Virus record (IMG/VR): IMGVR_UViG_3300037420_001924
Span: 1 to 49,864 of that record
Length of the DNA: 49,864 nucleotides
Reading direction: 5' to 3' (one strand)
Source: a virus
Lineage: Duplodnaviria; Caudoviricetes
Positions 15,831-44,900 of the stretch are shown here, in pieces. The first letter of the stretch is position 1. Each line of letters starts with the position of its first letter. Position numbers and translations under genes: made by a program. A model generated the notes under the pieces. It searched no databases. It was not told the DNA's origin and saw only the letters and a program-made list of their open reading frames with translations.

Positions 15831-15898
15831 TGAGCCCAGCAAAGAATACCTATTTAGCTTCTCTTGCGTCGCACTCGTGTACGCCTTGTAATTCTATT
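15831..15898 (-). repeat. ~70-bp dispersed element, copy 1 (inverted)
   Basis: Reverse complement AATAGAATTACAAGGCGTACACGAGTGCGACGCAAGAGAAGCTAAATAGG aligns with the other copies. Confidence 0.8.
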
Positions 15899-15903
15899 GA
15901 GCT

Positions 15904-16146
15904 ATGAATTGTATATGCTGTAATAGTGAAGTAAAAGAATTATACCCTGACTGGAAAGATGTTCCGCCCATGTGGAACAGTGCAGCCGCAGGGATTATTG
16001 ATGCCGGCTACGGGAGCAACCACGACTTAGACAGTTTTTCTTTTCTCATTTGTGATTCGTGTATTTCCGAAAAGCTGAAGGCAGGTGTAATAAAGCTCAA
16101 TAGCGAACAAAGCCCTGAAGGGAGTGACACAAGTAAAGTTTCATAG
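15904..16146 (+). CDS. Small Cys-rich (Zn-binding?) protein enclosed by inverted element copies
   Basis: CICC...CDSC; its C-terminus NSEQSPEGSDTSKVS is read from element copy 2. Confidence 0.65.
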   Translation: MNCICCNSEVKELYPDWKDVPPMWNSAAAGIIDAGYGSNHDLDSFSFLICDSCISEKLKAGVIKLNSEQSPEGSDTSKVS

Positions 16147-16168
16147 TAGTACAACAGCTAAGTACCTA
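16099..16168 (+). repeat. ~70-bp dispersed element, copy 2
   Basis: AATAGCGAACAAAGCCCTGAAGGGAGTGACACAAGTAAAGTTTCATAGTAGTACAACAGCTAAGTACC; 5' half nearly identical to copy 7. Confidence 0.85.
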
Positions 16169-16268
16169 AAAAGGCGAATATTTTAAAGATTCGACTAAAC
16201 AGGCGAACCTTTAAAACCCAGCCAAAACCGAGTAAAAAGCGGACTGTTTTGGATAAAATGATTACCCA

Positions 16269-16574
16269 GTGGAAAAACCCTATTTTATGGATACTGAAAT
16301 CAAAAAAGAAGAAGACCTCATCTTAGGCGATGAACAGGCAGAAGAAATCCTGGTGGACGACCCCTTTGAAGAGTACGACCTGCACGCAGAAATCACCTCC
16401 GCCTGCAATGCGCTGGGCGCTATTACGGACATGGACGAAGCCCTGTTTTCCAAAGAAAAGGCTAGAATGATCCGGGTTATCCGCAGAAAGTCACTGGAAA
16501 TCATTTACGAGAACATCGGCCATATCCATGCCCAGATATTTGAAAGAAAAGAAGAGGAGGAAGAAGAGGAGTAA
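16269..16574 (+). CDS. Acidic hypothetical protein
   Basis: ORF track; Glu/Asp-rich with a poly-E tail. Confidence 0.6.
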   Translation: MEKPYFMDTEIKKEEDLILGDEQAEEILVDDPFEEYDLHAEITSACNALGAITDMDEALFSKEKARMIRVIRRKSLEIIYENIGHIHAQIFERKEEEEEEE

Positions 16575-16603
16575 CAATTTTCTTTTTTCATATGCAGTTG
16601 GTT

Positions 16604-16634
16604 AGCCCAGGTGTGTCTACACCGGGCTTTTTTT
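16604..16634 (+). terminator. Intrinsic terminator-like hairpin (same type as the 26.1-26.8 kb units)
   Basis: AGCCC-A-GGTGT-gtct-ACACC-GGGCT followed by a T run. Confidence 0.75.
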
Positions 16635-16852
16635 ACCCCCTCAGTTGCGCCCTCACTTACCCCCTCATTTTTTACTGTATCCGGTAGTGTAACCTTTAGT
16701 GTAACAAAGAGGTTTAGGGTATAATAAACTGAGCCGGTTTATTATATACTTCTTTGGTTTATCTACTGTTAGGTTTATCCGTAAAAAGGTAACAGAGAAG
16801 TTGTATAAGGTCCACTGTAGTGAACATCCCTAAAGGTGAAATGTTTACTGTA

Positions 16853-16921
16853 ATGAACTTAGCTGAAGAATTACTATTAAGCCCCGGTTGCCACGCTCGC
16901 TTGTACTGCAACAATTCTATT
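16853..16921 (-). repeat. ~70-bp dispersed element, copy 3 (inverted), left of the Ro60 operon
   Basis: Reverse complement AATAGAATTGTTGCAGTACAAGCGAGCGTGGCAACCGGGGCTTAATAGTAATTCTTCAGCTAAGTTCA. Confidence 0.8.
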
Positions 16922-16961
16922 CGGCATTTTGTAAATTGTAAATCTTGTTGCAAAAATAAAT

Positions 16962-17003
16962 TTTGAACGTGCGTATGTTGTGTGTATATTTGATGTATGT
17001 TTG
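16962..17003 (+). promoter_or_regulatory. Bacteroidota sigma-A promoter with tandem operator repeats
   Basis: TTTG (16962-16965), 19-nt spacer, TATATTTG (16985-16992); GTATRTTK repeated at 16973, 16984 and 16995 (11-bp period). Confidence 0.75.
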
Positions 17004-17009
17004 TACCTA

Positions 17010-17156
17010 ATGAGGCGTTTTAATTTTTTCATAGAACAAGAGTGGATAGATCGTATTAGGCGGGATATGAGAAAACATGGTTTTACCAACGTTTCCAGTT
17101 TTATTCGGTATATTATAATACAGTTCTTTAAAAATATTGACAGTAGCGATAAGTGA
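17010..17156 (+). CDS. 48-aa ribbon-helix-helix (CopG/Arc-like) regulator, absent from the ORF track
   Basis: MRRFNFFIEQEWIDRIRRDMRKHGFTNVSSFIRYIIIQFFKNIDSSDK: alternating beta strand, helix, G-x-x-x-x-S-x-x-IR second helix. Confidence 0.7.
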   Translation: MRRFNFFIEQEWIDRIRRDMRKHGFTNVSSFIRYIIIQFFKNIDSSDK

Positions 17157-17262
17157 GTTACTTCGTGTCGTCGGTTCGAATCCGATCGTTAGCAATAACG
17201 TAGCTCAATTGGTAGAGCAAAAGGCCCGCAAGGGTTATACTTACTTAGATTATCTCTGTCAA
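17137..17262 (+). ncRNA. yrlA: YrlA-type Y RNA (tRNA mimic)
   Basis: Terminal helix TTGACAG/CTGTCAA plus TAAGTGAGT/ACTTACTTA; inside are a T-arm (GGTTCGAATCC), a GCAA-capped acceptor-like stem CGTTA/TAACG and then a D-arm (TAGCTCAATTGGTAGAGC), the T-before-D order of YrlA; adjacent to a Ro60 gene. Confidence 0.88.
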
Positions 17263-17267
17263 CATTC

Positions 17268-17335
17268 TTGCAAGTAGTGAGAAGTGCGTTACTTCAATTG
17301 GTATGAAACACACGTACTTCGGTTTTCTCTTGCAA
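17268..17335 (+). ncRNA. Short Y RNA 2
   Basis: TTGCAAG-TAGTGA-GAAGTGCGT-TACTTC...ACGTACTTC-GGTTTTCT-CTTGCAA; same geometry as unit 1 with compensatory changes. Confidence 0.8.
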
Positions 17336-17339
17336 ACTT

Positions 17340-17410
17340 ATTAGGATAGCGAAGGTTGAGTTACTTCATCTGCAAATTGAAACAACACTTAGCCTGTTTT
17401 TCTTCCTAAT
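17340..17410 (+). ncRNA. Short Y RNA 3
   Basis: ATTAGGA-TAGCGA-AGGTTGAGT-TACTTC...ACTTAGCCT-GTTTTTCT-TCCTAAT; same geometry. Confidence 0.8.
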
Positions 17411-17418
17411 GTTTTTGT

Positions 17419-17450
17419 AAGGGTTGCCATCGTGCAGCCCTTTTTATTTT
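17419..17450 (+). terminator. Terminator/attenuator between the Y RNAs and rsr
   Basis: AAGGGTTGC-catcgt-GCAGCCCTT followed by TTTATTTT. Confidence 0.7.
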
Positions 17451-17469
17451 GTCTTAAAACCAACTCAAT

Positions 17470-18918
17470 ATGTCAAGATTCAACACTACAACAACAGGAG
17501 CGAAAACGGTCAATTTAGCAGGGGGTGAAGCATACGGCCAAAACCCGGAACTGGAATTGGTTTCTATTCTTTTAACATCCTTTGCCAACGATCAGTTTTA
17601 CCGATCGGCAAATGATACGTTTGAACGCCTGAAGCAATTGGTTGGACTGTGTAATAAAGAATTCGTGGCAAAGGCGGCGGTTTATGCCCGGACGCAGTTT
17701 GGTATGCGGTCTATTACCCATGTTGTAGCCTCTGAACTGGCAAAGCATATCGGCGGCGAAAAATGGGCTAAAGACTTTTATTCCGCTATTGTTTACCGGC
17801 CGGATGATATGCTGGAAATCCTTTCCTACCATACACAAAATAATGGCAAGATTCCCAACTCCATCAAGAAGGGGTTTGCCAGGGCATTTGACCGGTTCTC
17901 TAAATATGATCTGGCTAAATACCGGGGCGAAAACAAGGGTTTTAAATTGGTAGATGTAGTGAACTTGGTTCACCCCACGCCAACCGAAAACAACCGGGAA
18001 GCGATTGATGCGCTGGTAAAGGGAGAGCTGAAATCCTTTGATACATGGGAATCGGAACTGACAAGGGCGGGGCAGGCGGCAGCGAATGAAGAGGAAAGGG
18101 CGGAATTTAAAAAAGAGGTTTGGGTAAAGCTGGTACGCGAAAAGAAAATCGGCTATTTCGCCCTGCTTCGGAATTTACGAAATATCATTGAGCAAGCGCC
18201 CGAAGTCGTGGCAGAGGCTTTGGAAACCCTCACCAATGAAGCTATTATTAAAAAGTCGCTGGTGCTGCCTTTCCGGTTCTTAACGGCCTTTGAGGAAATC
18301 CGGAAGCTAAACGATGGCAAAGTAATTCGGGATGTTCTTATGGCATTAAATAAAGCCGTGGATATTGCCGTTAATAATGTTCCCAAGTTCGATGGTGAAA
18401 CCCTTGTGGTGTTGGACGTCTCCGGTTCTATGCGCGAAATGGGCAAGGGAACCAAATCGCCTCATATCATCGGGGCTTTATTTTCTGCAGTATTGGTAAA
18501 GGCGAACAACTGCGATCTTATGACCTTTGATAACCATGCAAGGTATGTAAACATAAATCCATTTGATTCAACCATTACCATATCGAATTCCATTCCATTT
18601 ACAGGTGGTGGTACGGATTTTCACTCTATTTTCAGAACCGCTAATAAGAAGTACGACCGGATTATTATTTTATCCGATATGCAGGGATGGATAGGGTATC
18701 ATTCCCCTTCCCATGTATTCAATGTGTACAAACAAAGCACCGGGGCCAACCCGTTTGTTTATTCCTTTGATTTGAACTCCTACGGCTCCCTGCAATTCCC
18801 TGAACAGAACGTTTTTGCAATAGCCGGTTTCAGTGAGAAGGTGTTTGATATCATGAAACTAATGGAAACCGATAAGCGGGCTTTAATCAATGAGATTAAA
18901 AAGATTTCATTTAGCTAG
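17470..18918 (+). CDS. rsr: Ro60/Rsr RNA-binding protein (TROVE + vWA)
   Basis: TROVE motifs NLAGGEAY, DLAKY, LVHP, TWE and ALLRNLRN; vWA MIDAS DVSGSM...GGTD...SD. Confidence 0.95.
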   Translation: MSRFNTTTTGAKTVNLAGGEAYGQNPELELVSILLTSFANDQFYRSANDTFERLKQLVGLCNKEFVAKAAVYARTQFGMRSITHVVASELAKHIGGEKWAKDFYSAIVYRPDDMLEILSYHTQNNGKIPNSIKKGFARAFDRFSKYDLAKYRGENKGFKLVDVVNLVHPTPTENNREAIDALVKGELKSFDTWESELTRAGQAAANEEERAEFKKEVWVKLVREKKIGYFALLRNLRNIIEQAPEVVAEALETLTNEAIIKKSLVLPFRFLTAFEEIRKLNDGKVIRDVLMALNKAVDIAVNNVPKFDGETLVVLDVSGSMREMGKGTKSPHIIGALFSAVLVKANNCDLMTFDNHARYVNINPFDSTITISNSIPFTGGGTDFHSIFRTANKKYDRIIILSDMQGWIGYHSPSHVFNVYKQSTGANPFVYSFDLNSYGSLQFPEQNVFAIAGFSEKVFDIMKLMETDKRALINEIKKISFS

Positions 18919-19048
18919 CTTCGCCCTTGGTTTTTCATAGGATATTGGACCCTGAAAAAAGACCGCTAACAAAAATAGCTGCTTTTTTATTTAAAAACCC
19001 CAACGTTAACAAAAGGCTGAGCCTGTTGCAAATTATTCCTTAAAAAAG

Positions 19049-19080: not shown

Positions 19081-19093
19081 TCGTAAATTAGAG

Positions 19094-19935: not shown

Positions 19936-19947
19936 AATCTTGACAAA

Positions 19948-22432: not shown

Positions 22433-22437
22433 CCACG

Positions 22438-23825: not shown

Positions 23826-24215
23826 ATGAAAATTCAAACTGTTGTCACCAAAAACGAATTAGTAGAACTGGACATTCAACTGCCCTTCTATTGCAAGACC
23901 TCTGCTTCGGTTTATTATAAAGTAGTAAGCGAAACAAAAGCCATCCGGGTTACGCATAAATGGGTCGACTGTATAAATACCTGCAACCCTCAGGATAGCC
24001 ATACTGCCAATGAAATTACTCAGGCCACTGCTTGCAGTGAGCAGGAATACGAAGCCGCCAAAGCGAAGGTATTTGAAAACATTCAGGAGGCCGAAGCAAC
24101 CGAAGCAGATAGGGAAGAAGATCCCAACATCTACCATGAAACTATAATCGAAGAAAGGTTATTTGATGAATCCTTTCAAAACGAACTATACGAAAGAGAG
24201 GAGGGCTTGTCATGA
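23826..24215 (+). CDS. Hypothetical early protein
   Basis: ORF track; acidic C-terminus. Confidence 0.6.
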   Translation: MKIQTVVTKNELVELDIQLPFYCKTSASVYYKVVSETKAIRVTHKWVDCINTCNPQDSHTANEITQATACSEQEYEAAKAKVFENIQEAEATEADREEDPNIYHETIIEERLFDESFQNELYEREEGLS

Positions 24216-24577
24216 ACACACTGCACACACCAGGGCCTTGGGAAGCTCGGTTTACTAATGACCAAATGAGCTATGAGGAGACAACCGTTTGCCAGCTTAA
24301 ATATCTACAGCATCCAAACGGGTATTGGGTGGTAACATCACCAGTAACCAATCACGGAGATGAGGAGTCCACCGCCCGCTTTATCGCAGCGGCGCCGGAA
24401 CTCTTGGAAAAGTTGCAATGGATAATCAAGAAACCTTCATTGGCTTTTGATTGCAAATATTGGTACGACAACCCACACAAACAGATTAATGAGACAAGAG
24501 AGGAAATGGCTAAACAATGGGAAGATTTATTGGCTGTTGTGGCTAAAGCTACCTGCAAAAAGGAGGGAGCAAAATGA
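24212..24577 (+). CDS. HTPGPW-family phage protein
   Basis: HTPGPW...ARFIAAAPELL. Confidence 0.7.
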   Translation: MNTLHTPGPWEARFTNDQMSYEETTVCQLKYLQHPNGYWVVTSPVTNHGDEESTARFIAAAPELLEKLQWIIKKPSLAFDCKYWYDNPHKQINETREEMAKQWEDLLAVVAKATCKKEGAK

Positions 24578-28622: not shown

Positions 28623-29045
28623 ATGAAAGAAGTATTTCTAACTATTAAGGATAAGCGGGTGGTTGAAAAGGTGGATCTGCCCGATGGTAGGTATGCTGCC
28701 AAATGGAGCCGCAAGGACAATCGCAGCAACCAGCAGAACCGCTACCTGCATGGGGTGATGCTGCCGGTGATAAAGGAGGCACTGCTGGGCGCTGGCTGGA
28801 ACATGATTAAGAGTATAGAGGACGCTAAAGACTTTGTAAAAATCAAGTTCTTAAAGTACGATATGGTGAACGAAGAAACCGGCGAAGTCGTGGAGATGTA
28901 TAGAAATACCAGCGCCCTCACCAAAGCACAGTTTTCAGAGCTGGTGCAGGATGTTCAGATATGGCTATTGGAGTTTTTTAATATCAACCTTCCCTTACCG
29001 GGAGAGCAAGCCAGTTTGTTTAACGAAAAAAATAAAGCAGCATGA
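28623..29045 (+). CDS. NinB/Orf-like recombination protein
   Basis: RSNQQNRYLHG...TSALTKAQFSELV. Confidence 0.65.
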   Translation: MKEVFLTIKDKRVVEKVDLPDGRYAAKWSRKDNRSNQQNRYLHGVMLPVIKEALLGAGWNMIKSIEDAKDFVKIKFLKYDMVNEETGEVVEMYRNTSALTKAQFSELVQDVQIWLLEFFNINLPLPGEQASLFNEKNKAA

Positions 29046-29236
29046 CAAAGCAAGAAGCTATAAAATTAATGGAACAGGACAAAAAGGTAGCCCATAGATT
29101 CTTTGAGCCTTACGAGTGGATTACTATGCTGGCAGGAAAAATAGTTACAGAGGAAGGGTATTGTGTATCGGCTAATCAATTCTGGAGCTACAGACAGGAT
29201 AAGTTTTGGGAAGAAGATTGGTCAATTGTTGAATAG
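29042..29236 (+). CDS. Small hypothetical protein
   Basis: MTKQEAI...KKVAHRFF...WEEDWSI; stop codon lies in element copy 4. Confidence 0.65.
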   Translation: MTKQEAIKLMEQDKKVAHRFFEPYEWITMLAGKIVTEEGYCVSANQFWSYRQDKFWEEDWSIVE

Positions 29237-29301
29237 CGATCAGGACGTACAAGTGTGCGACGCAACAAAAGCTTAATAGATACTGAAAAGCTCGGTACCC
29301 A
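29232..29301 (+). repeat. ~70-bp dispersed element, copy 4
   Basis: AATAGCGATCAGGACGTACAAGTGTGCGACGCAACAAAAGCTTAATAGATACTGAAAAGCTCGGTACCCA. Confidence 0.85.
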
Positions 29302-29327
29302 AATAAACACACACAAAATAAAATCTT

Positions 29328-29653: not shown

Positions 29654-30133
29654 ATGAAGCACCAGCTCTGTTCTGTAAAAGGTTGCCCCTACTTCGGTCG
29701 TTACTGCCGCCTTCCTCACGGATCGGAAAAAGAAGAAGTGGTCGAATCCCTACCCGTCCTTTTAAAGAAGGCAGAGTCGGTTTTTAACCTCTTTATCCGA
29801 CTTCGGGATAAGGACAAGGGTTGCATCAGTTGCACCGGCAAAGTGGAAGATGCCGGTCATTACCTGGCTGTAGGCTCTTATTCAGGGGTCAGGTTCGATG
29901 AAGTAAACGTAAACGGCCAGTGCCACCATAATTGCAATACGGGTAAATACGGCAATCCTAAAGCCTACCGGGAGGGACTGGTAAAACGGATCGGGAAAAA
30001 GAAAGTGGAGCAATTGGAGCAGAGAGCCAAACAGACCAAACAGTACAAGTGGACAAGGGGTGAACTGTTGGAAATCATTGAAACGTACACGGTAAAGGTG
30101 AAACAGTTTAAAAAACAAAAGCAATCTGTATGA
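29654..30133 (+). CDS. ninG: NinG/Rap-like endonuclease
   Basis: FNLFIRLRDKDKGCISC...DAGHY...RFDEVNVNGQC..CN. Confidence 0.85.
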   Translation: MKHQLCSVKGCPYFGRYCRLPHGSEKEEVVESLPVLLKKAESVFNLFIRLRDKDKGCISCTGKVEDAGHYLAVGSYSGVRFDEVNVNGQCHHNCNTGKYGNPKAYREGLVKRIGKKKVEQLEQRAKQTKQYKWTRGELLEIIETYTVKVKQFKKQKQSV

Positions 30134-30405
30134 CCCTTCCTCTTTCAGAACCGAAGTATTACTTCTTAGAAGGATTTTACTGGCAGGTAACGGAAAACGG
30201 ACTACTCCAGTTTGATGAAAATTTCTGCAATCCCTGGAAACCGGGAACCAAGATGTACGAGTGGAAAAGAAGGCAGCTATCAGTTATCCGGCCCATTCAC
30301 CACTCTGAAGGGGAATATGTGCTGGACCTGTTGATTAAGTATTTAGAGGGAATTAGAACAAGTCAAAAAGATAATAAACAATTCATGGAGAATCCTGTAC
30401 TATGA
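30130..30405 (+). CDS. Hypothetical protein
   Basis: ATGA-coupled ORF. Confidence 0.55.
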   Translation: MTLPLSEPKYYFLEGFYWQVTENGLLQFDENFCNPWKPGTKMYEWKRRQLSVIRPIHHSEGEYVLDLLIKYLEGIRTSQKDNKQFMENPVL

Positions 30406-31085
30406 AAAAGGACGCTTACTATTTTTCTCACGATGCCAATGCTCAAGATGATCCTAAGATGATGGTTCTTATCGATCAATTAGGTATGGAAGGCTACGGT
30501 ATTTTTTGGGCAATTATTGAAAAACTTAGAAATGAAGCCGAATACCGGCTGCCCTTATCAGTTACTGCATCATTCGCAAGACGTTGGGGAACCAGTAGAG
30601 AAAAGGTAGATACGGTAATCCTCAAGTATGGCCTGTTTATCGTAGAGGATGAATATTTCTTCAGTTTAAGGTTACGCAGAAGTATGATAGAAAAGAGCGA
30701 AAAAGCAAGAGTATCAGCTAATTATAGGTGGCAAAATGCGAACGCATTGCCATCGCATAGCGAACGCAGTCCGAACGGTATGCGAAACGATGCTATTAAA
30801 GTAAAGGAAAGAAAAGGAAAGAAAAGTAATCTAATAGACGATTTGTTTGAGGCCTTTTGGGATAAGTACGCCAATAAGATTGATAAGAACCAAGCACTAA
30901 AGGCATGGAGCAAACTAAGCGAATCTGAAAGGCAAAAAGCTATTGACTACATCCCGATCTATTTTTCCAACCTACAAGAGTGGCAATCTAAAAAATATCC
31001 GGCAACCTATCTAAATGGTAAAAGTTGGGAGGATGGCGCAGAGATGAAAAACAATTTTATACCTATCAAAAAAATGGTTGACTAA
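30402..31085 (+). CDS. Replication initiator (DUF4373/Lin1244-like N-terminus)
   Basis: YFSHDANAQDDPKM..GMEGYGIFWAIIEKL; C-terminal FEAFWDKY..K..A..AW..YPATYLN. Confidence 0.8.
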   Translation: MKKDAYYFSHDANAQDDPKMMVLIDQLGMEGYGIFWAIIEKLRNEAEYRLPLSVTASFARRWGTSREKVDTVILKYGLFIVEDEYFFSLRLRRSMIEKSEKARVSANYRWQNANALPSHSERSPNGMRNDAIKVKERKGKKSNLIDDLFEAFWDKYANKIDKNQALKAWSKLSESERQKAIDYIPIYFSNLQEWQSKKYPATYLNGKSWEDGAEMKNNFIPIKKMVD

Positions 31086-32809
31086 TGAACATCAATTGGG
31101 CAAAATTCGGAATAGACATTTCAAAGGCTGTAGGCGGTAAAATGGTCTGCCCCAAATGCAGCCCTAACCGTAAAAACAAACGGGACCGTTCTCTGTCCGT
31201 TGACCTTAAAACCGGTGCTTACAATTGTCACTACAACGGCTGCGACTTCAGGGGCTACGCCGTGGATGTTCAAAAAGAAAAAAAGCAGTACGTAAAGCCT
31301 GTCCCCCGTTTGGAGAAACTATCCAAAAAATCCATTGACTTTTTTGAAGCAAGGGGTATATCCAATAACACGTTACTAAGACTGAATGTTACCGAATCCA
31401 TAGAACAGATGCCCCAATTTGAAAAGAAAGTGCCTTGCATTTGCTTCAACTATTACCGGTGTGGCGAACTGATAAACATCAAATTCCGGGGGCCGCAAAA
31501 GTCATTTAAGATGGCAAGGGAAGCGGAATTGATTTTTTACAACCTCGATGCGGTAATAGGCGAAGAAGAAATTGTAATTGTAGAGGGAGAAATGGACTGC
31601 CTCACCCTTCATGAATGTGGCATCTACAACGTGGTCAGTGTGCCCAACGGGGCCAGCATGGGCAACCAAAAACTGGAATATCTGGATAATTGCTGGCAGG
31701 TATTTGAACAGGCCAAACGAATTGTGCTGGCCGTGGATAACGATAGTGCCGGTATGGCACTACGGGATGAACTAGCCCGGCGCTTAGGGAAAGACAGATG
31801 CTTTACCGTAGCCTACCCTGAAGATTGTAAAGATGTAAACGACGTTTTAGTGAAGCAAGGCAAAGAAGCGGTAAAAGCCGTATTGGACGGCAAGGTGCAG
31901 TGGCCCCTGGAAGGCATTCTTACAATGGATGAAATGTACGATACTATTTGCAACTGGTACGAACACGGCTACCCCAAAGGGGCAAGGGCAGGTGTGGAAG
32001 GTTTGGACGAACTGTTAACCTTTGTGCCCGGCCAACTCACCACCATAACGGGCATTCCCTCTCACGGTAAGGATGAATTTACCAACTGGATCTTATCGGG
32101 ACTTGCCAAAAATTGCGGGTGGAAGATTGCCGATTGTGGCTTTGAGGAAGAACCCCCGCAAACCGTAACCAAGCTGATTGAAAAGCTAATCGGAAAATCC
32201 TTTGACTTTCGGGTGAACCCTTTGCAACGGGTCTCTATTGAGGAATTTGAACAGGGCGTGTACTTTGTCGATCAACATTTTTATTTCTACAATACCGAAA
32301 CCATTGAAACCGATATTGATTCCCTTTTGGCTATTGCTGAAAGCCTGGTAAAACGCTACGGCATTAAAGCCCTTCGCCTCAACCCCTGGAACTGGATTGA
32401 AGCCAACCGCCCCACAGGGATGAATGAAACGGAATGGGTCAGCGTTGTTTTAAGCAAAGTTATCCGCTTTGCCCGGAAGTTTGGCGTCCATGTGTTTTTG
32501 ATTGCCCACACCACCAAAATGCAAAAGGACAAGCAAACCAAAAAATACGATGTACCCAACCTTTATGATATTTCCGGCTCAGCACACTTCTACAATAAAA
32601 CCCACAACGGCATCAGCGTGTACCGGGATGAGGAAACAGTAGACGTGTACGTACAGAAAGTCAAGCAATCCTGGTTAGGGCAAAAGGGCTTTAGTATGTA
32701 TAAGTACGATACAATGACCCGCCAGTATCAGTTTCTGAATTGTTCTGCCCGTACTGCATCCAAGCTCATTTCGGTAAAAGATATTACGGAACCCAAAAAA
32801 TCAGCGTAA
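31085..32809 (+). CDS. Primase-helicase (Zn finger, TOPRIM, SF4 helicase; T7 gp4/Twinkle-like)
   Basis: CPKC..CH..C; IVEGEMD, SVPNGA, DND, KDVND; helicase motifs GIPSHGK, LIAH, YDISGS. Confidence 0.9.
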   Translation: MNINWAKFGIDISKAVGGKMVCPKCSPNRKNKRDRSLSVDLKTGAYNCHYNGCDFRGYAVDVQKEKKQYVKPVPRLEKLSKKSIDFFEARGISNNTLLRLNVTESIEQMPQFEKKVPCICFNYYRCGELINIKFRGPQKSFKMAREAELIFYNLDAVIGEEEIVIVEGEMDCLTLHECGIYNVVSVPNGASMGNQKLEYLDNCWQVFEQAKRIVLAVDNDSAGMALRDELARRLGKDRCFTVAYPEDCKDVNDVLVKQGKEAVKAVLDGKVQWPLEGILTMDEMYDTICNWYEHGYPKGARAGVEGLDELLTFVPGQLTTITGIPSHGKDEFTNWILSGLAKNCGWKIADCGFEEEPPQTVTKLIEKLIGKSFDFRVNPLQRVSIEEFEQGVYFVDQHFYFYNTETIETDIDSLLAIAESLVKRYGIKALRLNPWNWIEANRPTGMNETEWVSVVLSKVIRFARKFGVHVFLIAHTTKMQKDKQTKKYDVPNLYDISGSAHFYNKTHNGISVYRDEETVDVYVQKVKQSWLGQKGFSMYKYDTMTRQYQFLNCSARTASKLISVKDITEPKKSA

Positions 32810-33663: not shown

Positions 33664-33717
33664 GATGGGTTCTAAACATAGCCTAAAAAGCTATTATAAA
33701 CGAAGAAATGAACAAAA

Positions 33718-34416
33718 ATGACCAATCAAATTCAATATGCACTGCTTAATTGGGTAAAAGGTGGCTATGATGTGGTGGTTCCTAACTTTTTCTATGGCTG
33801 GAATGAGTGTGACCTATTTAGAATCACGCAGTCGGATTTTGTATTTGAGTATGAAATAAAGGTTAGCCGTAGTGATTTTCTTGCCGACTTTAAAAAGTCC
33901 AACCGGCAGGGTAAAAAGCACGATAGCTTAAACACTGGCACCGGCCAATATTGCCCAAATAGGTTTTTTTACGTAGTTCCACAGGGGCTTATAGAAAAGA
34001 GGGAAGTGCCAAAGTATGCAGGTCTTATCTACTTCAAAGGGTATTCGTTTGATGTCATAAAGCCAGCCCCGCTACTTCACAGAAATAAAATTGGATTTGA
34101 GGTGTACCGGGATATATGCAGAACCCTTTCATCCAGATATCAAGAGCAGCGCAAGCGAATCCGACAAATCAGAAATACGGAATTTGATAAGGAGATAGCG
34201 GCTATGAAAAGAGAGGTCGCCAAGTTGGAAACAGCCAGAAGGGAAGCTAATAATGAATCTTTCTTGTTTAAAGCGGCGTCGAGAAAAATGAAAAAGGAAT
34301 TAGATGCGGTTTTAACAGGCGTTATCAATGAAGAAAAAATTAAAGAGTGCTTCAGCTTCTATTGGCGAATAATGAACCAATACGTCGAAGTGTGTGACGG
34401 AAGGGACGCTTCATAG
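33718..34416 (+). CDS. MmcB-like PD-(D/E)XK protein
   Basis: ECD...EYEIKVSRSDFLADFKK...PNRFFYVVP...YAGL; C-terminus read from element copy 5. Confidence 0.7.
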   Translation: MTNQIQYALLNWVKGGYDVVVPNFFYGWNECDLFRITQSDFVFEYEIKVSRSDFLADFKKSNRQGKKHDSLNTGTGQYCPNRFFYVVPQGLIEKREVPKYAGLIYFKGYSFDVIKPAPLLHRNKIGFEVYRDICRTLSSRYQEQRKRIRQIRNTEFDKEIAAMKREVAKLETARREANNESFLFKAASRKMKKELDAVLTGVINEEKIKECFSFYWRIMNQYVEVCDGRDAS

Positions 34417-34439
34417 TAGCACCAAAAGCTGAGTACCCA
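34368..34439 (+). repeat. ~70-bp dispersed element, copy 5
   Basis: ...CGTCGAAGTGTGTGACGGAAGGGACGCTTCATAGTAGCACCAAAAGCTGAGTACCCA. Confidence 0.8.
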
Positions 34440-34458
34440 AAATAATAAAACCAACTAT

Positions 34459-37040: not shown

Positions 37041-37565
37041 ATGAGTAGCGAAAGAAGTCTTACCAAAGAAGTAAAAAACGAAATTATCAAAGAGATGCGT
37101 GCCTTTCATGAAGAGACCATGAACCGCCACTCCAAAGGACTCAAACACTATTTCTATCCCAAGGTTCCCTTTATGCGTCCAAACGGGGTGCGTGTCATTG
37201 GCATGTTCCGCTCCGAACTTGAAAAACCCGATGAAAATATTTTTATTGAAACCATCAACTTACACTACGAAGCACTCGACAAGCGCCGCACCCTATATCG
37301 CCTTAAATACAATCCCCATTTTAAGGAAGAATACGAACACGTAGGCAACGACCGGTACAATGTCCCTTTAGACGATCTGGAAATCATCTGGCAGTTGCAG
37401 GAACATTCTCCCAACGATTTGCCCGAACTGCCCCTGCTCTACGACTCTGAAATGATTGCGGATAACAACCTCACCCAAATGACCATCCGCGACCTGGCCG
37501 CCATCCTACTCAAAAAACCAGTGAGTTACAAACCCTGGCTCAACGACCTGGTCATGGGCCGGTAA
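37041..37565 (+). CDS. Hypothetical protein
   Basis: ORF track; C-terminal MTIRDLAAILLKKPVSYKPWLNDLV. Confidence 0.65.
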   Translation: MSSERSLTKEVKNEIIKEMRAFHEETMNRHSKGLKHYFYPKVPFMRPNGVRVIGMFRSELEKPDENIFIETINLHYEALDKRRTLYRLKYNPHFKEEYEHVGNDRYNVPLDDLEIIWQLQEHSPNDLPELPLLYDSEMIADNNLTQMTIRDLAAILLKKPVSYKPWLNDLVMGR

Positions 37566-37616
37566 CTCCGATTGAGCTTTTGGGGCGACGCTCAGTTCAA
37601 CGCCTGTGCTACTATA
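37551..37616 (-). repeat. ~70-bp dispersed element, copy 6 (inverted, degenerate)
   Basis: Reverse complement AGGCGTTGAACTGAGCGTCGCCCCAAAAGCTCAATCGG aligns without gaps to copy 1. Confidence 0.6.
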
Positions 37617-37659
37617 AAACAACACTACCTAACATTTTAAACTAAAAAAATGGTCACTT

Positions 37660-37902
37660 ATGAAAATAGATAACGTAGTATGTAAAATAAGAGTAGGCGA
37701 CAAGGTAGAAGTAAGGCCGTTATGGGGGCCAAGTTTAGCGGGCAAGGTTGCCACCGTCACAAAGGTAGAACGGTACATCAACTGCGAATCCGGCTTTATG
37801 GTCAGCATTGACATATACGACAGGCCATTGGATGCCAACTGGTTCATCCTCTTGCCAAATAGCGAACAAAGCCCTGAAGTGAGTGACACAACAGACGCTT
37901 AA
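37660..37902 (+). CDS. Small SH3/KOW-like protein enclosed by inverted element copies
   Basis: IRVGDKVEV...GKVATV; C-terminus NSEQSPEVSDTTDA read from copy 7. Confidence 0.6.
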   Translation: MKIDNVVCKIRVGDKVEVRPLWGPSLAGKVATVTKVERYINCESGFMVSIDIYDRPLDANWFILLPNSEQSPEVSDTTDA

Positions 37903-37927
37903 TAGTAGTACAAAAGCTGATAACCCA
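37858..37927 (+). repeat. ~70-bp dispersed element, copy 7
   Basis: AATAGCGAACAAAGCCCTGAAGTGAGTGACACAACAGACGCTTAATAGTAGTACAAAAGCTGATAACCCA. Confidence 0.85.
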
Positions 37928-38001
37928 AAATCCTTTCCTTATCGAAAAGAAAAACACCACCCCATTTTTTAAAACAACTAAAACTAAAAATTAGACCCCT
38001 T

Positions 38002-38415
38002 ATGAGTCAATCCCCCACCCCAGAACAGACTTTAGGCCAGATCCTATCCTGCCAGACCCAAAACGACCCTCAGAAATGGAAGCGTCCCGCCCTATCGGAA
38101 GAAAAGAAAATCTTATCGGATGAGGACATAAGAAACTTTATTATCCGGGTAGAAGACTCCTTAGACCTGCCTTTGGGCATCTTAAGCCAGCCGGGAAAGG
38201 GAACCGTCAAAGGTCACCAGATACCAGCGGTCAAGCAGGCCGTAATCTACCACTTAACCCAAACCACCAAAGTCAGCCAAAAGACCTTAGCCCCGTTTTT
38301 TGCCTTAAACCAGCAAAACATAGGCTATCATGTTCAGGAGGCTAAGAACCACATAAAAACCAATGATGAAATCTTTTCACAGTATTACTTAATCATTCAA
38401 AATTTAGCCGTATGA
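38002..38415 (+). CDS. HTH protein (DnaA C-terminal-like), possible late regulator
   Basis: KQAVIYHL...VSQKTLAPFFALNQQNIGYHV. Confidence 0.55.
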   Translation: MSQSPTPEQTLGQILSCQTQNDPQKWKRPALSEEKKILSDEDIRNFIIRVEDSLDLPLGILSQPGKGTVKGHQIPAVKQAVIYHLTQTTKVSQKTLAPFFALNQQNIGYHVQEAKNHIKTNDEIFSQYYLIIQNLAV

Positions 38416-38888
38416 AAGTTTGCAGTAAGTGTAAAGTTGAGAAGGACGAAATAGAGTTTTATAAAAATAAATCTAAATCGGACGGATTGTCGACGTATTG
38501 CAAAAAATGTTCTTGTGGTGCATCGAGTGAATTCCGTAAAAAAAATAGTACATACTGGAATAAATATAAAGAAAAGAGAAAGTTGTGGAAGAAGGATAAT
38601 CCAGATAGCGTTAAGAAATTTAAGAAGACTTATTATAATAAGCATAAGGATAGTATAATAGAAAAAGCAAAATTGAGATATACAAATAACCATGAAGCAA
38701 AAAAGTCGATTTTAGCCACTTCCAAAAAATGTAGAGAAGAATTACGTCCATCATATATAGTATGGCTATTAAAACAACAGGGATTTACAAGAGAGCAAAT
38801 AGATAAAGAGAGCGGACTTATAAATATAAAAAAGGCAATCATTCAAATTAAACGCTTTACAAAAGATAACAGTAGCTTAAGTAGTTAA
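38412..38888 (+). CDS. Basic Cys-rich protein (HNH N-terminal Zn-finger-like)
   Basis: KVCSKC..K..EFY...DGLSTYCKKC; AT-rich. Confidence 0.6.
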   Translation: MKVCSKCKVEKDEIEFYKNKSKSDGLSTYCKKCSCGASSEFRKKNSTYWNKYKEKRKLWKKDNPDSVKKFKKTYYNKHKDSIIEKAKLRYTNNHEAKKSILATSKKCREELRPSYIVWLLKQQGFTREQIDKESGLINIKKAIIQIKRFTKDNSSLSS

Positions 38889-38898
38889 AATCAATTGT

Positions 38899-39342
38899 AT
38901 GGGTAAAGTATGCGGCAAATGTAATACTTATAAAAACGAAGATGATTTTGGTTATAGAGGCAAGTATCTACATAGTTATTGTAATAGTTGCAAAAAGGAA
39001 TATACAAAAGAATGGAGAGATCAAAACCAAATTAGGATGAAGAAATATAGAGAGGATAATAAGGGTAAGATAAGTAGTAATTACAAAAAATGGGCTGATT
39101 CAAATAAACAAAAAAGGGATGAATATATAAGAAATTGGGTTGAGCAAAACTATACAAATGAACATAAATCTTTTTTTAGAAAAAATTGGGTATCCAATCT
39201 TAAAGATGGTTATATAAAAATGATATTAAGACAAAAAGGGTTCACTAAAGAACACATAAAACAAAGCCCAGAATTATTAACAATACAAAAAACAATCCTT
39301 CAAATTCAACGTTATGCAAAAAACAACAGTAACAAATCTTGA
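38899..39342 (+). CDS. Paralog of the preceding Cys-rich protein
   Basis: KVCGKC...SYCNSC; shared C-terminus YI..L.Q.GFT.E.I...IQ/LQI.R. Confidence 0.6.
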   Translation: MGKVCGKCNTYKNEDDFGYRGKYLHSYCNSCKKEYTKEWRDQNQIRMKKYREDNKGKISSNYKKWADSNKQKRDEYIRNWVEQNYTNEHKSFFRKNWVSNLKDGYIKMILRQKGFTKEHIKQSPELLTIQKTILQIQRYAKNNSNKS

Positions 39343-39544
39343 ACAATTAGGAACAGACCTATTAAAAGTTTATGGTGAGCTAAGAGATGGATCTATGGAA
39401 ATTAAAACAGCCGAAGCTTTAGCAAACGTAGCCGGTAAAGTTATAGGTGCAACCAAAGTAATTGCTGATGTACGATCTTATCAAGGTGCATTAGGAGAAA
39501 TGCCTTTAGTTGATGACAGTAAAGGGCTAAAAGCGGCTTCCTGA
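39314..39544 (+). CDS. Hypothetical protein
   Basis: LRDGSMEIKTAEALANVAGKVI; overlaps the previous ORF. Confidence 0.6.
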   Translation: MQKTTVTNLEQLGTDLLKVYGELRDGSMEIKTAEALANVAGKVIGATKVIADVRSYQGALGEMPLVDDSKGLKAAS

Positions 39545-39551
39545 TTTGCTG

Positions 39552-39621
39552 AATAGAATTACTGGAAGTACACGGGAGCGTCGCAACGGATGCTCCATTT
39601 TTATTCTTCAGCCGGTTACAT
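39552..39621 (+). repeat. ~70-bp dispersed element, copy 8
   Basis: AATAGAATTACTGGAAGTACACGGGAGCGTCGCAACGGATGCTCCATTTTTATTCTTCAGCCGGTTACA. Confidence 0.75.
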
Positions 39622-39818
39622 AATCTTCTTACCCCTTAACACAATTCCAACACAATTCTAAGGGCGCAGTTATTTCCCTACCCCTGTTACTCTGACTACT
39701 TTAGTAGGACAAGCCACCAAAAACCACTTCCTACGAACAAACGAACGCCTTCTCATATAGCAAGCAATCGTAACGCCCAGTGTTTTTACACCGGGCATCC
39801 TCATTTTAAATCCCCTAT

Positions 39819-40744: not shown

Positions 40745-42195
40745 CCATAAGTGATAAAAGGGAGCTTTTATACCTATTGGAGCAAAAGGCGAAGCTAAGG
40801 GCTAAAAAGGATTTGCTGGGGTTTGCCAAGTGGACTATGCCCACCTTTCAGCCCAATTGGTTCCATGAGAAATACTACGAAGTTCTTTCACAGTTTGCAG
40901 AGGGGAACATAAAAAAGCTGATGGTCTTTGTGCCACCGCAACACGGCAAATCGGAAGGGTCTACCCGTAGGCTGCCCGCTTACCTGTTAGGACACGACCC
41001 GGACAAGAAGATAGCAGTAGTGAGTTATTCGGCACCCAAAGCCCGAAAATTTAACCGGGAAATTCAACGGGTCATAGATACCCCCGAATACCGGGAAGTG
41101 TTCCCGAACACCCGCCTAAACGCTTCTAATGTCATTACAGTGGCAGGAAGCTGGCTTAGAAATTCAGACGAATGCGAGATCGTAGGCAGGCGCGGCGGAT
41201 TTAAGACGGTGGGAGTATGCGGCCCGCTCACAGGGGAGCCGGTAGATGTATTGATTATGGACGACATCTACAAGGATGCCAAGACAGCCTGGAGCGAAAC
41301 GGTCAGGGACAGCATCCAGGATTGGTATGGTACGGTAGCCGACACCCGCCTTCATAACGATAGCCAACAACTTATCGTCTTTACCCGTTGGCACGAAAAC
41401 GACCTGGCTGGCTATTTACTCAGAAAGGAAGGGAGGATAGAAGAGGGCGGTGATTGGGCTGTATTTGTGTTCCCTGCCCTTAAGATTGGCCCTCCTAATC
41501 AGTATGACCCGAGAGAGGAAGGAACTCCCTTATGGCCGGAGCGCCACGGGCTGGAGAAGCTAATAAAGTCGCGGCAAAGGGATAGCCACATTTTCGAATC
41601 GCTGTACCAGCAGAATCCAAAGCCAAAAGAAGGGCTTTTGTATAAAGAGTACAAGCTATACAGAACCCTTCCCGTAGAGGCTGGGACGAAAAAGGCGGTC
41701 ATTGATACCGCTGATACCGGCGAGGATTACCTGTGTTCTATCGTGTATAGCCCTACCCCCCACGGTTACTATCTTTTGGATGTGTACTATACCGCTCAGG
41801 GCATGGAAACCACCGAAGACGCTACGGCAAGGCAGTTGACCAAGTTTTTGGTAGATAGGGTAAAAGTGGAGTCCAATAACGGGGGCCGGGGCTTTGCCCG
41901 CAACGTGGAAAAGAAGTGCCGGGAGCTACACAACCGAAAAACCGCCTTTTCGTGGTTCCATCAGACCCACAATAAGGAGGTTCGGATATTCACAAAGGCC
42001 GCTGAAGTGCAGAATATGATCTACTACCCCGAAGGATGGGATTTGATGTGGCCGGAGTTCTATAGTGCCGTGACGGGGTATATGGCGACAGGAAAGAACA
42101 AGCACGACGACGCCCCCGATGCCCTGACCATGATCGTGGAAGAAGAAACAATATCTAAACAACCTAAAAAGAATCTTTCAAACATAGCCCCATAA
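40741..42195 (+). CDS. terL: Terminase large subunit
   Basis: PPQHGKS Walker A, LIMDD Walker B, TRWHEND, LYQQNP, and nuclease motifs DTAD, ESNNGG, HDDAPD. Confidence 0.95.
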   Translation: MTISDKRELLYLLEQKAKLRAKKDLLGFAKWTMPTFQPNWFHEKYYEVLSQFAEGNIKKLMVFVPPQHGKSEGSTRRLPAYLLGHDPDKKIAVVSYSAPKARKFNREIQRVIDTPEYREVFPNTRLNASNVITVAGSWLRNSDECEIVGRRGGFKTVGVCGPLTGEPVDVLIMDDIYKDAKTAWSETVRDSIQDWYGTVADTRLHNDSQQLIVFTRWHENDLAGYLLRKEGRIEEGGDWAVFVFPALKIGPPNQYDPREEGTPLWPERHGLEKLIKSRQRDSHIFESLYQQNPKPKEGLLYKEYKLYRTLPVEAGTKKAVIDTADTGEDYLCSIVYSPTPHGYYLLDVYYTAQGMETTEDATARQLTKFLVDRVKVESNNGGRGFARNVEKKCRELHNRKTAFSWFHQTHNKEVRIFTKAAEVQNMIYYPEGWDLMWPEFYSAVTGYMATGKNKHDDAPDALTMIVEEETISKQPKKNLSNIAP

Positions 42196-43613
42196 TGAAA
42201 ACAGAACGGTTAAACGAATTATTGCAAGGCAACCCCAATGAGCTAAAGCAGGTCTTTGAAAAAGAGGTCGGCGATAAGGACAAAAACCTTGCAACCTATC
42301 AAAAGCAGTACGATGTTACCCAGCACGACATCTTTGACCCGGTAAAGCGAAAAAATAAGCCCATCAAAGACGATAACGGCAATATCGTAGACTATAAAGA
42401 AGTGGCCCGCATCGGGGTACCCATGCAAAAGATCATCACCCAAACAGCGGCGGCCTTCCTCTGCGGCAATCCCATTAAGTTGGTTGCTAACGCAGAAGAG
42501 GACACCGTGGGAAAAACACTCTTAGAGGGCATAGAAAAAGTATGGGACGACAATAAACTGGATTATAAGAGCATGGACCTCTCGGAAAAGATGATGAGTG
42601 AAACTGAAGTTGCGGAACTGTGGTACACCGAAGAGTTGGAAGACCCTACGGAGTATTGGGGGGACACTAAAATTAACGGCAAGTTCCGCCTTCGCATGAA
42701 GATGCTAGCCCCTTCGCTGGGGGATTCGCTCTTACCCGTCTTTGATCCTACCGGCAACCTAATCGCCTTTGGCCGGGGCTATACCCTAAAAAATGAAGGG
42801 GCGCAGGAGGAGCATTTTGATGTCTATACCGACAAATTCTTTTACCACGGCGTAAGGACTAAAGACGGCTGGCTTCTGGACGTGCCCGTTCAAAACGTAG
42901 TGGGCAAGATTCCTGTGGTGTACTACTCCCAACCCACCCCGGAATGGGCCGACGTGCAAGCCGCCATTGACCGTATTGAAATGGTCTTGTCCCGCCATGC
43001 CGATACCAACGATTACTCGGGGGCGCCGATCCTCTTTACCAAAGGGCAGATTCTATCGCTGCCCGAAAAAGAGCAGGACGGTAAAGCCATCCAGGCCGAA
43101 GAAAACGCCGACGCCAAGTTCCTTTCCTGGGACCACGCCCCCGAATCCATTAAGCTGGAAATTGAACAACTCTTTAAGGTGATCTATGCCTGCACCTTTA
43201 CACCGGACATCTCCTTTGACGCCCTAAAAGGGGTGGGGCAGACCTCCGGCTTTGCAATGGAATGTATGTTCATGGGAGCGCACCTGAAAGCCGCCAAAAA
43301 AGCGGGCATCTTTGGTGAAGGGGTGCAGCGCAGGATCAACTACTTAAAAGCGGCGCTGTCCACCATTGACCTAACGCTTAAAAAAGGAATTAGCTTAAAG
43401 ATCAAGCCGCAGTTTGAGTTTTTCCTGCCCAAAGACATGGAGGGGTTGGTGAACACGCTGACCACGGCGGTCAGTGGAGGCATCATGTCCAAAGACACGG
43501 GGGTGCGCCAGCTGGGGATTGCAGAAGACGTTCAGGCCGAGCTAGCACAGATTGAACAGGAAGCTAATAGCGCCGGGGCCTTAAACCAAATCATGAATCA
43601 AAACCAACTCTAA
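42195..43613 (+). CDS. Portal protein (SPP1 gp6-like)
   Basis: AFLCGNPI, KIPVVYY, DTNDYSGAPIL, TPDISF, SGFA; follows TerL. Confidence 0.9.
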   Translation: MKTERLNELLQGNPNELKQVFEKEVGDKDKNLATYQKQYDVTQHDIFDPVKRKNKPIKDDNGNIVDYKEVARIGVPMQKIITQTAAAFLCGNPIKLVANAEEDTVGKTLLEGIEKVWDDNKLDYKSMDLSEKMMSETEVAELWYTEELEDPTEYWGDTKINGKFRLRMKMLAPSLGDSLLPVFDPTGNLIAFGRGYTLKNEGAQEEHFDVYTDKFFYHGVRTKDGWLLDVPVQNVVGKIPVVYYSQPTPEWADVQAAIDRIEMVLSRHADTNDYSGAPILFTKGQILSLPEKEQDGKAIQAEENADAKFLSWDHAPESIKLEIEQLFKVIYACTFTPDISFDALKGVGQTSGFAMECMFMGAHLKAAKKAGIFGEGVQRRINYLKAALSTIDLTLKKGISLKIKPQFEFFLPKDMEGLVNTLTTAVSGGIMSKDTGVRQLGIAEDVQAELAQIEQEANSAGALNQIMNQNQL

Positions 43614-43615
43614 AT

Positions 43616-44053
43616 ATGGGTAAGAAAGCCAAACTAAAAAAGATAAGAAAAATAGCCGCTCAAATGCCCAGGGTCATGGTAGGCCATGTTCAGGGCGAAC
43701 GGGTAAGCGGGGCCGAACTCTTTAAGTCAGGCGTGGAAGAAGTGGAAGGAAGTCCGGTTGATGTTGATGCGACCTACAAAAAGAAAAACGTGGTTGCTGT
43801 GCCCCTGAATCATAACCGCAAAATGAAGCAGATGTACAATAAGCAGGGAGTTAAGGGGGTGAGCGCCTACATACAGGCCGTTAACCGTTATATGATGGCT
43901 CAAAAGTTGGCAGAGAAGGCAAAGCAAAAAGAGCAGGAAAAGCTGGAAGGAGTAATGAGCGATGGGGCACATGAAAATGATTATTGTGCAGAACCGGTTT
44001 TGGAAACAAAAGGTGAAGTACTCTTAAAAGAACAGGGCGGCGATAAATTTTAA
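43616..44053 (+). CDS. Hypothetical basic protein
   Basis: ORF track; NHNRKMKQMYNKQGVKGV. Confidence 0.6.
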   Translation: MGKKAKLKKIRKIAAQMPRVMVGHVQGERVSGAELFKSGVEEVEGSPVDVDATYKKKNVVAVPLNHNRKMKQMYNKQGVKGVSAYIQAVNRYMMAQKLAEKAKQKEQEKLEGVMSDGAHENDYCAEPVLETKGEVLLKEQGGDKF

Positions 44054-44109
44054 AATCATGTTCACCTGTATAATCCTGTTTTTGATCGTTGGCCTTGTGT
44101 TAAGGATAT

Positions 44110-44277
44110 ATGAAGGAAGAAAAGCCCCATACTGACCCTGATGAGCAGATCGAGGAAGCCCTAAAAAAGCTCTCCTATGAGAGTTTGAAGGCATGGAATG
44201 AGCAATTACAAAAACAAAAAGACGAGAGCAACCCGCTTCGTAGCGGCATGGATGAAAAAACCGAAGGCATACCGTAA
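44110..44277 (+). CDS. 55-aa hypothetical protein, absent from the ORF track
   Basis: MKEEKPHTDPDEQIEEALKKLSYESLKAWNEQLQKQKDESNPLRSGMDEKTEGIP. Confidence 0.45.
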   Translation: MKEEKPHTDPDEQIEEALKKLSYESLKAWNEQLQKQKDESNPLRSGMDEKTEGIP

Positions 44278-44289
44278 ACAATACTTATA

Positions 44290-44511
44290 ATGCAACATAT
44301 AGAAAAGCAAAAAATCTGCTTTGAATATTTAGAAAGTGGGGATAAGTGCTTAGATGCCTTATTTTTTATTAAAATGATGTTTGAGATTCAAATGATTACA
44401 CCGGCCCAAAAACAATTGGTTTTAAATTATTTATTAAGTGAATCTATGATATCTGACAGAGAAGTGGAAACCTCAAATAAACGAAGGTCGTATGAGTTAC
44501 CAAAACCTTAA
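44290..44511 (+). CDS. Hypothetical protein
   Basis: ORF track; AT-rich. Confidence 0.45.
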   Translation: MQHIEKQKICFEYLESGDKCLDALFFIKMMFEIQMITPAQKQLVLNYLLSESMISDREVETSNKRRSYELPKP

Positions 44512-44677
44512 AAAGAAGCTGCTGTTTTATAGCCTGTGGTGGTGCGAGATGAGCGCAGAGGAAAGGAAGGGATTTACCGGAAAGTGGGTACGGGAGCGTA
44601 TTGAAATATTCGACGGCATCCTTAAAGAGATTGAAAAGCATATTGAGCAGTTTCAAAGATTAATAAAAAGAGCATAA
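44492..44677 (+). CDS. Hypothetical protein
   Basis: ORF track. Confidence 0.45.
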   Translation: MSYQNLKKKLLFYSLWWCEMSAEERKGFTGKWVRERIEIFDGILKEIEKHIEQFQRLIKRA

Positions 44678-44878
44678 ATGAAACTTATACAGATGCGCCA
44701 TTTGTATTTCATGTCTTGTAGTTGGTATCCCTCCCCAATTAACTTGCCTTATTGGATGGAGTGTAGAAATGCTAATGACGAGATAGTGGCATACGTAAGA
44801 ATTAAGAGCTTTAAACGCATTTTGGGCCGAATAGAATTACCCAAAGCCGAAGAGTGCGACGCAAGTAAAGCCAAATAG
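44678..44878 (+). CDS. Small hypothetical protein ending in element copy 9
   Basis: C-terminus RIELPKAEECDASKAK read from the repeat. Confidence 0.5.
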   Translation: MKLIQMRHLYFMSCSWYPSPINLPYWMECRNANDEIVAYVRIKSFKRILGRIELPKAEECDASKAK

Positions 44879-44900
44879 TAGTAAAACAGCTAAGTTCCTA
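44830..44900 (+). repeat. ~70-bp dispersed element, copy 9
   Basis: AATAGAATTACCCAAAGCCGAAGAGTGCGACGCAAGTAAAGCCAAATAGTAGTAAAACAGCTAAGTTCCTA. Confidence 0.85.

Follow-up and report, generated by a model that had tools for sequence, protein, structure and literature searches.

The window analysed here is the whole of one virus record, IMGVR_UViG_3300037420_001924, 49.9 kb in length, and it carries nine copies of a short repeat element. PHROG and Pfam scans mark it as a temperate phage of the tailed kind, whose genes cover the tape measure, lysis, an integrase, a primase-helicase, the terminase, the portal and the capsid; NinB, NinG/Rap and RusA-like proteins are also encoded. A first-pass annotation, made from the sequence alone, had described the repeat as ∼70 bp in length. 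Alignment located all nine copies at the expected coordinates and on the expected strands, and the length was corrected to ∼78 bp. Eight copies score 36–47 bits with a leave-one-out profile, against a maximum of 8.3 bits in 20 shuffled windows; the ninth, at 37551 on the minus strand, is degenerate (13 bits, E 0.003). With a profile from the nine copies, no unlisted position of the window exceeds 6 bits. A profile built solely from 151 chromosomal copies (see below) recovers the identical nine, and all other window matches are at or below 3 bits. The repeat is not described in the full-text literature searched, with figures, subscription papers and bioRxiv supplements outside reach.

The element has a sharp 5′ boundary at the G of the sequence GCYNAATAG and an A-rich 3′ edge. 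Two imperfect direct-repeat arms, 43–45 bp apart, flank a near-invariant core. The first arm begins with GCYNAATAG and leads into the core, which has the consensus AAGWGWGYGACRCAAC; a second arm of the same type follows, and then the A-rich edge. The 16–20-bp core is nearly invariant across genera and the arms are variable. A variant arm has been found in either arm position in one host genome (G005), and copies are mosaics of short words, some of which occur in both arms. Segments of 16 site-level copies are weakly correlated and patches of the 3′ arm have been replaced at four sites; thus exchange of sequence between copies is frequent and affects either side of the core. The core had been reported to co-vary. 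A C-G/T-A switch is present (105 and 46 of 151 copies), but it is tied to a third position, and it therefore looks like two inherited haplotypes rather than repeated compensation. Duplication of the arms at insertion was considered and rejected, as arm similarity within copies clearly exceeds that of shuffles in only one of four regions (G086, offset 43; three offsets tried).

Three related phage records, G158, G159 and G160, have 12, 4 and 5 copies, respectively. The leftmost element copy of the window, at 15826–15903 on the minus strand, abuts with its 5′ end the ATG of an 80-amino-acid (aa) open reading frame (ORF) at 15904–16146 (+); homology to G158 ends at this 5′ end, and other genes follow. 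The ORF lies between an inverted pair of elements, the copy at 16094–16171 (+) closing the unit, and the element encodes its final ∼15 residues. In the protein's closest homolog (P0003, 67% identical, 66 aa) the sequence stops where the element-coded tail starts. At 16849–16926 (−), the 5′ side of the element faces a 58-aa ORF and a YrlA-like RNA/Ro60 block that is missing at the same site in G158. The YrlA-like RNA (17137–17265, +) scores 33 bits, below the Rfam gathering score of 69, and lies directly upstream of the Ro60/TROVE gene (17470–18918, +); three copies of a 35-nt direct repeat (family D4) are found around it, at 17130–17367. The copy at 29227–29304 (+) overlaps the stop codon of a 64-aa ORF. 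Its 5′ side in G158 is an unrelated 143-aa gene, and its 5′ flank is common to G159.

Further along the window, a 232-aa accessory ORF of the phrog_2776 family (33718–34416, +), replaced in relatives, ends within the copy at 34363–34442 (+); the 3′ arm of this copy is common to G158 and G160 and its neighbours differ on both sides. Another inverted pair is formed by the degenerate copy at 37544–37621 (−) and the copy at 37853–37930 (+). Inside it is an 80-aa accessory ORF with an element-coded tail (37660–37902, +), which is replaced in a contig from sequencing run X10. The copy at 39547–39625 (+) has its core and 3′ arm in common with G159, where the 5′ arm and the upstream genes differ, and it is absent in G160. 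At 38412–39544 are two paralogous zinc-finger/HNH-like ORFs and a 76-aa ORF; G159 has a single 158-aa ORF instead, and the block is absent in G160. The last copy, at 44825–44903 (+), is entered by a 66-aa accessory ORF with an element-coded tail (44678–44878, +) and precedes a head-morphogenesis gene. L177 has a copy with a different upstream ORF, and G159, G160 and L170 are without a copy.

At the translated level, the four similar peptide tails previously pointed out in unrelated proteins (PEGSDTSKVS, PEVSDTTDA, EVCDGRDAS and EECDASKAK) were confirmed. In-frame minus-strand copies are also found inside a phage ORF of 263–283 aa in two phages (G158 30697–31548 and G160 1861–2652, aligned orientation). 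Minus-strand copies likewise extend the ORFs G158 24002–24295 and G159 2054–2350, which have a common tail read from the opposite strand; the window homolog of these tail-extended ORFs (30130–30405) has no copy and no such tail. The absence of copies from tail and capsid genes, also remarked upon earlier, holds for the window but does not extend to other phages, which carry copies between tail genes.

The new property of this repeat is its polarity: exchange is one-sided and occurs at the 5′ end of the element, the main feature that the first-pass annotation missed. Informative gene junctions were compared between the window and the three related records in all ordered pairs. All 31 junctions with an element are synteny breaks, as are 159 of the 225 without one. 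Twenty-nine of the 31 keep the 3′-side gene with the 5′-side gene absent, none shows the reverse, and two keep both genes in non-adjacent positions. Breaks without an element split 66:79, with 14 keeping both genes. Being pairwise, these counts are interdependent; reduction by hand to 10 distinct sites gives a ratio of 10:0 (p = 0.002). Three of the ten sites are on the minus strand, which shows that polarity tracks the element and not transcription.

At the DNA sequence level, 15 of 128 homology-block ends are at element positions −13 to +29, and three are at the 3′ edge (hand count). At the site at 37853, four phages display four upstream genes and four 5′ arms, with the same core and the same downstream gene. 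Four sites in all have a 5′ arm that varies with the cargo while the core is common. At three sites the break is exactly at the 5′ boundary (15826, 29227 relative to G158, and G158 24214), and a comparison of G158 with G160 reveals a 92-aa ORF inserted between a common gene and the 5′ end of the element. Empty sites have arm-like words at the upstream stop codon. In relatives without a copy, homology resumes at or just past the 3′ edge (positions 75 and 93). A candidate for a clean filled/empty pair, window 13690–13740 versus L180, was discarded, the flank having diverged.

Contigs from five public soil and rhizosphere runs contain the window phage and relatives. A replacement from 29045 to 29246 that resumes inside the element is present in three of four runs, and replacements from 37647 to 37860 and from 33717 to 34414, also resuming inside the element, in one of four runs each. 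In two of four runs, a joint leads from the 44825 copy into the flank of the 29227 copy. Joints that lead backwards run from 34451, just past a 3′ end, to 33697, just before the 232-aa ORF (three of five runs, low depth), and from 39564 to 37876 (two of five runs, low depth); such back-joints fit a circle or a rearranged relative alike, and contig joints in general often stem from other organisms or repeats. A search for cargo ORFs with elements in another context returned solely the same phage and two distant homologs without copies. Two metagenome scans yielded no confirmed relative, and cultured phage records gave no match.

Outside phages, the element is a dispersed, mainly chromosomal repeat of the Chitinophagaceae. 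A scan of 185,579 species genomes matched an estimated ∼700 stretches, and of the 80 titles listed, nearly all name Chitinophagaceae or unclassified Bacteroidota; one listed match is titled alphaproteobacterium (L040) and is possibly a mis-binned contig. The exact core is found in 81 of 151 Chitinophagaceae genomes, 1 to 1,427 times (reversed control 0), and is missing from 70. It occurs in 12 of 301 genomes sampled from the phylum, ten of which are also from the family samples and two of which have one variant match each. This distribution points to a member of the Chitinophagaceae as the probable host of the phage. Three copy-rich genomes have one copy per ∼3 kb, with neighbouring copies alternating in strand, and back-to-back doublets are common: over 800 kb of the three genomes, 37 of 91 '−+' neighbours are no more than 250 bp apart, versus 8 of 94 '+−' neighbours. 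One doublet in G005 (L042, 2850–3260) is nested in the loop of a heptamer-built palindrome, and the congener G152 has the palindrome without the doublet. Filled/empty site pairs in hosts were sought and abandoned, as the compared species are too distant.

Copies near transposase genes display a preferred facing. Where the nearest copy is within 800 bp of a Y1-transposase gene, its 5′ end is toward the gene in 12 of 13 cases at 20 bits and in 15 of 16 at 12 bits, in a partly post hoc test of 87 loci (nine duplicates removed), 30 of which were fetched by similarity to a case already seen. These transposase genes form two groups with repeats of their own, and hence look like passengers. G005 has other repeats in 84 of 138 5′ flanks and in 12 of 138 3′ flanks.

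A cognate enzyme was sought in several places. PHROG and Pfam scans detected no HUH or DDE transposase among the 78 window ORFs, and clustering and reading of the neighbours of chromosomal and viral copies, made with no Pfam scan, brought out no prominent recurrent enzyme gene. RAYT was rejected as the mobiliser: one G005 RAYT is flanked by the element, but its relatives L137–L140 (63–71% identity) are not. A copy of the element is present in 6 of 32 RAYT loci, and many of these loci have other flanking repeats. TnpA subclass 1.2 was likewise rejected, as element copies are outside the arms that belong to the enzyme itself, and a search for the clade found nothing in G007, in G010 or, with the query used, in G005; a copy is present upstream, outside the arms, in 8 of the 22 closest loci and in none of the next eight. 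Genes of the subclass-1.2 type are bracketed by short palindromic repeats of their own (L461, L463, L441, L471, L479 and relatives). In L471, downstream of the transposase gene, one element copy also has short palindromes inserted in its core, and a second copy comes directly after it. The co-occurring recombinase or transposase that the first-pass annotation proposed to look for was thus not substantiated with RAYT, IS91, TnpA subclass 1.2 or integron integrase.

REP, BIME and REPIN repeats with their RAYT (TnpA-REP) transposases, as treated in PMC3733652, PMC6006769 and PMC8266576, offer a comparison. The element resembles these repeats in being high-copy, family-restricted and intergenic, in often forming inverted doublets, and in varying in copy number over orders of magnitude. 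It differs in its length of ∼78 bp and its direct-repeat arms, and has no 20–40-bp stem-loop and no GTAG or CGTC at the foot of a hairpin; both core words are absent from Table S1 of PMC6006769 in a word search of the whole file. Also unlike the REP/RAYT pairing, nearby RAYT and subclass-1.2 genes own different repeats, no cognate Y1 gene is flanked by the element, and the polar gene exchange in phages is a feature of the element. With respect to MITEs (transposable elements of the miniature inverted-repeat kind), the '− cargo +' units are inverted at their ends, but a large number of copies stand alone. Target-site duplications are not apparent: seven units share only 3–5-nt, mostly A-rich words near their outer ends, and no duplication is evident in 35 '−+' pairs. 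CRISPR was set aside in the earlier annotation, and the window copies indeed form no regular short-spacer array, being spaced 268–12,378 bp apart on mixed strands. The element lacks defining features of REP-RAYT repeats, attC sites, MITEs and IS91 ends, and no described REP, MITE or Rfam family was matched.

In the phage lineage, the element is best read as a probable one-sided recombination joint, where the element and the 3′-side gene stay and the 5′-side DNA is added or replaced. The probability of this reading is put at about 0.5. As a possible mechanism, suggested by the sequence comparisons, a nick or break would form at the invariant core or immediately 5′ of it. The end that bears the core would then pair with a second copy, residing in a different phage or in the host chromosome, and copy the partner's 5′ arm together with whatever DNA lies upstream. 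A short match, often an arm-like stop-codon context, would serve to rejoin the copied DNA with the upstream gene already resident there. Genes landing with their 3′ end in the arm would lose their stop codon and gain an element-coded tail. The enzyme responsible is probably host-encoded. The earlier proposal of a recombination site for cassette shuffling survives in so far as breakpoints of gain and replacement map to the element; a phage-specific integron-like system with its own recombinase is unsupported because the repeat is mainly chromosomal, stands as single copies between housekeeping genes whose order is undisturbed, and has yielded no cognate enzyme.

Several observations weigh against a one-sided joint. 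A cognate enzyme was not found, RAYT, IS91/Y2, TnpA subclass 1.2 and integron integrase each having been tested without support. Replacement of 3′-arm patches at four sites, different genes on both sides at 34363, and the lack of a single crossover point in the linkage between element positions also tell against it, and the pairwise counts behind it are interdependent. The window/G159 pair at 29227, with its common 5′ flank, was dropped by a contig-edge filter, and one intragenic copy is unbroken. The 159 pairwise breaks without any element are most of the breakpoints in the compared phages, so the element is not required for gene exchange. In a set of 13 sequences from other groups of phages, conservation is seen at 21 of 38 element junctions, some of them between tail genes, and breaks split 10:4 in the same direction, which amounts to four sites versus two; the two opposing sites were judged artefactual, owing to a non-syntenic integrase match and to a short ORF call. 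Mapped host copies are intergenic and single, between housekeeping genes (recognised by reading), with gene order intact. Gene order is also intact over four junctions between G086 and G157, where copies are present in both genomes at two junctions and in one genome only at each of the other two. The excess of other repeats in 5′ flanks seen in G005 is missing in G086 (2 of 58 flanks on either side) and G078 (0 of 44), and the partly post hoc nature of the transposase-facing test counts here as well.

Could the repeat act simply as portable homology? PeSL cassettes of the T4-type phages RB49 and phi1 are described as phage promoter–terminator cassettes that recombine between flanking copies, with circles proposed (PMC2839356). 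Both repeats are on a scale of ∼80–100 bp and lie beside accessory ORFans, and genes are inserted, deleted or replaced at the repeats. Three element copies scanned for promoters and terminators contain no terminator and have six sigma-70-like sites against 3.9 expected (standard deviation 2.2), which is near chance, Bacteroidota promoters being outside the scan. The element, too, is adjoined by accessory genes that differ between phages, but it is mainly chromosomal, often has inverted copies around the cargo, and shows one-sided exchange. A passive role of the PeSL kind would imply that a selfish host repeat enters prophages and that ordinary phage or host recombination crosses in the conserved core, with polarity arising from selection or from back-to-back doublets that happen to enclose dispensable DNA. 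Crossovers often at the core edge, the NinB, NinG/Rap and RusA-like proteins of the phage, the frequency of back-to-back doublets in hosts and the mosaic nature of copies are all in keeping with this. Homology-anchored illegitimate recombination, and likewise relaxed recombination by phage recombinases, can insert foreign genes with one homologous anchor and a short match at the other end, which the proposed joint resembles; no intrinsic polarity would be expected of such processes, however, and they involve no dedicated site dispersed through a genome. If homology acted symmetrically, both sides should be swapped, whereas the count is 10:0 with minus-strand copies included; moreover, three breaks are at the 5′ boundary, outside the best homology, and the same facing is seen toward host transposase cassettes. 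Passive homology is therefore possible but rather doubtful. Also considered was the leading end of a one-ended mobile unit, working in the manner of an IS91/ISCR origin end or an HUH-recognised end. The transposition of IS91 and ISCR is one-ended, and what varies is the DNA to one side of a short end. The element would similarly use its 3′ end for precise insertion at A-rich stop-codon sites and drag variable 5′-side DNA, with solo copies being cargo-free. The polarity is alike, homology in relatives without a copy resumes where such insertion would predict, genomes of the family hold anything from 0 to 1,427 copies, and the 34451 to 33697 joint is as expected of a circle of cargo plus element, although that back-joint is low-depth and may come from a rearranged relative. 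On the other hand, a Y2 transposase is present in only 4 of 17 genomes rich in copies and in 2 of 19 that have none, ten Y2 loci have two weak partial element matches only, and IS91/Y2 was rejected as the mobiliser. The 3′ part also stays resident at common sites while the cargo changes, which would need a second process. A one-ended unit is thus unlikely.

Two other explanations are considerably less probable. A regulatory or structural site, either a protein-binding palindrome or an RNA element, might be kept at gene borders with the link to accessory genes incidental. The near-invariance of the core amid variable arms and across genera would be explained, as would the persistence of some copy positions between host species. 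However, the consensus fold of the copies has no paired positions, and z-scores of −1.6 to +1.5 over 18 strands (both strands of the nine copies) indicate no stable hairpin. Nor did Rfam produce a family matching the repeat, for the window at E up to 1 or for 60 kb of copy-rich G005 at E up to 0.5, and the suggestion of an RNA element in the earlier annotation is accordingly without support. There is also no strict orientation of copies relative to neighbouring genes in 109 host cases, almost half of the family genomes lack the exact core, and the polarity of the breaks would be left unexplained. This explanation seems quite improbable. An integron-like, site-specific cassette system with a phage or host tyrosine recombinase is scarcely tenable. 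Integron attC sites and gene cassettes are reportedly found in phages also, and the element is like attC in that it is short and marks the 3′ end of small ORFs without promoters; these ORFs vary from genome to genome, run into the site and undergo exchange at it. In an unrelated, lambdoid group of phages (L291, L294, ∼2092–3040), a gene for a XerC-like 294-aa recombinase is present beside the terminase gene, with an element copy directly after. But attC sites follow the rule RYYYAAC … GTTRRRY, and these ends are found in none of 29 phage copies (either strand, 20-bp flanks), as had been noted for the window. The element is without a long hairpin, without IntI and without a fixed crossover, break positions being scattered over ∼40 bases; copies alternate in orientation and run into the hundreds in hosts. 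The window integrase scores 37.7 bits versus an integron-integrase cut-off of 265 and has a phage-integrase arm-binding domain.

A one-sided joint in phages bears on two open questions: how small accessory genes come to be acquired by phages at clean gene borders, and how REP-like repeats spread without a dedicated transposase. One short site marks strictly directed gene exchange in a natural phage population, and the same facing is found toward mobile cassettes in hosts. If there is an enzyme behind the element, it would represent a new kind of polar DNA-insertion site. A site, an orientation and a predicted junction are at hand that can be tested directly in a family of soil and water bacteria. 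A broader and more tentative possibility is gene capture throughout the family, with a host nicking enzyme that recognises the core in hundreds of sites and joins foreign DNA at the 5′ end. If this were true, the chromosome and every resident prophage would form a distributed, array-free counterpart of the integron, from which phages sample accessory genes.

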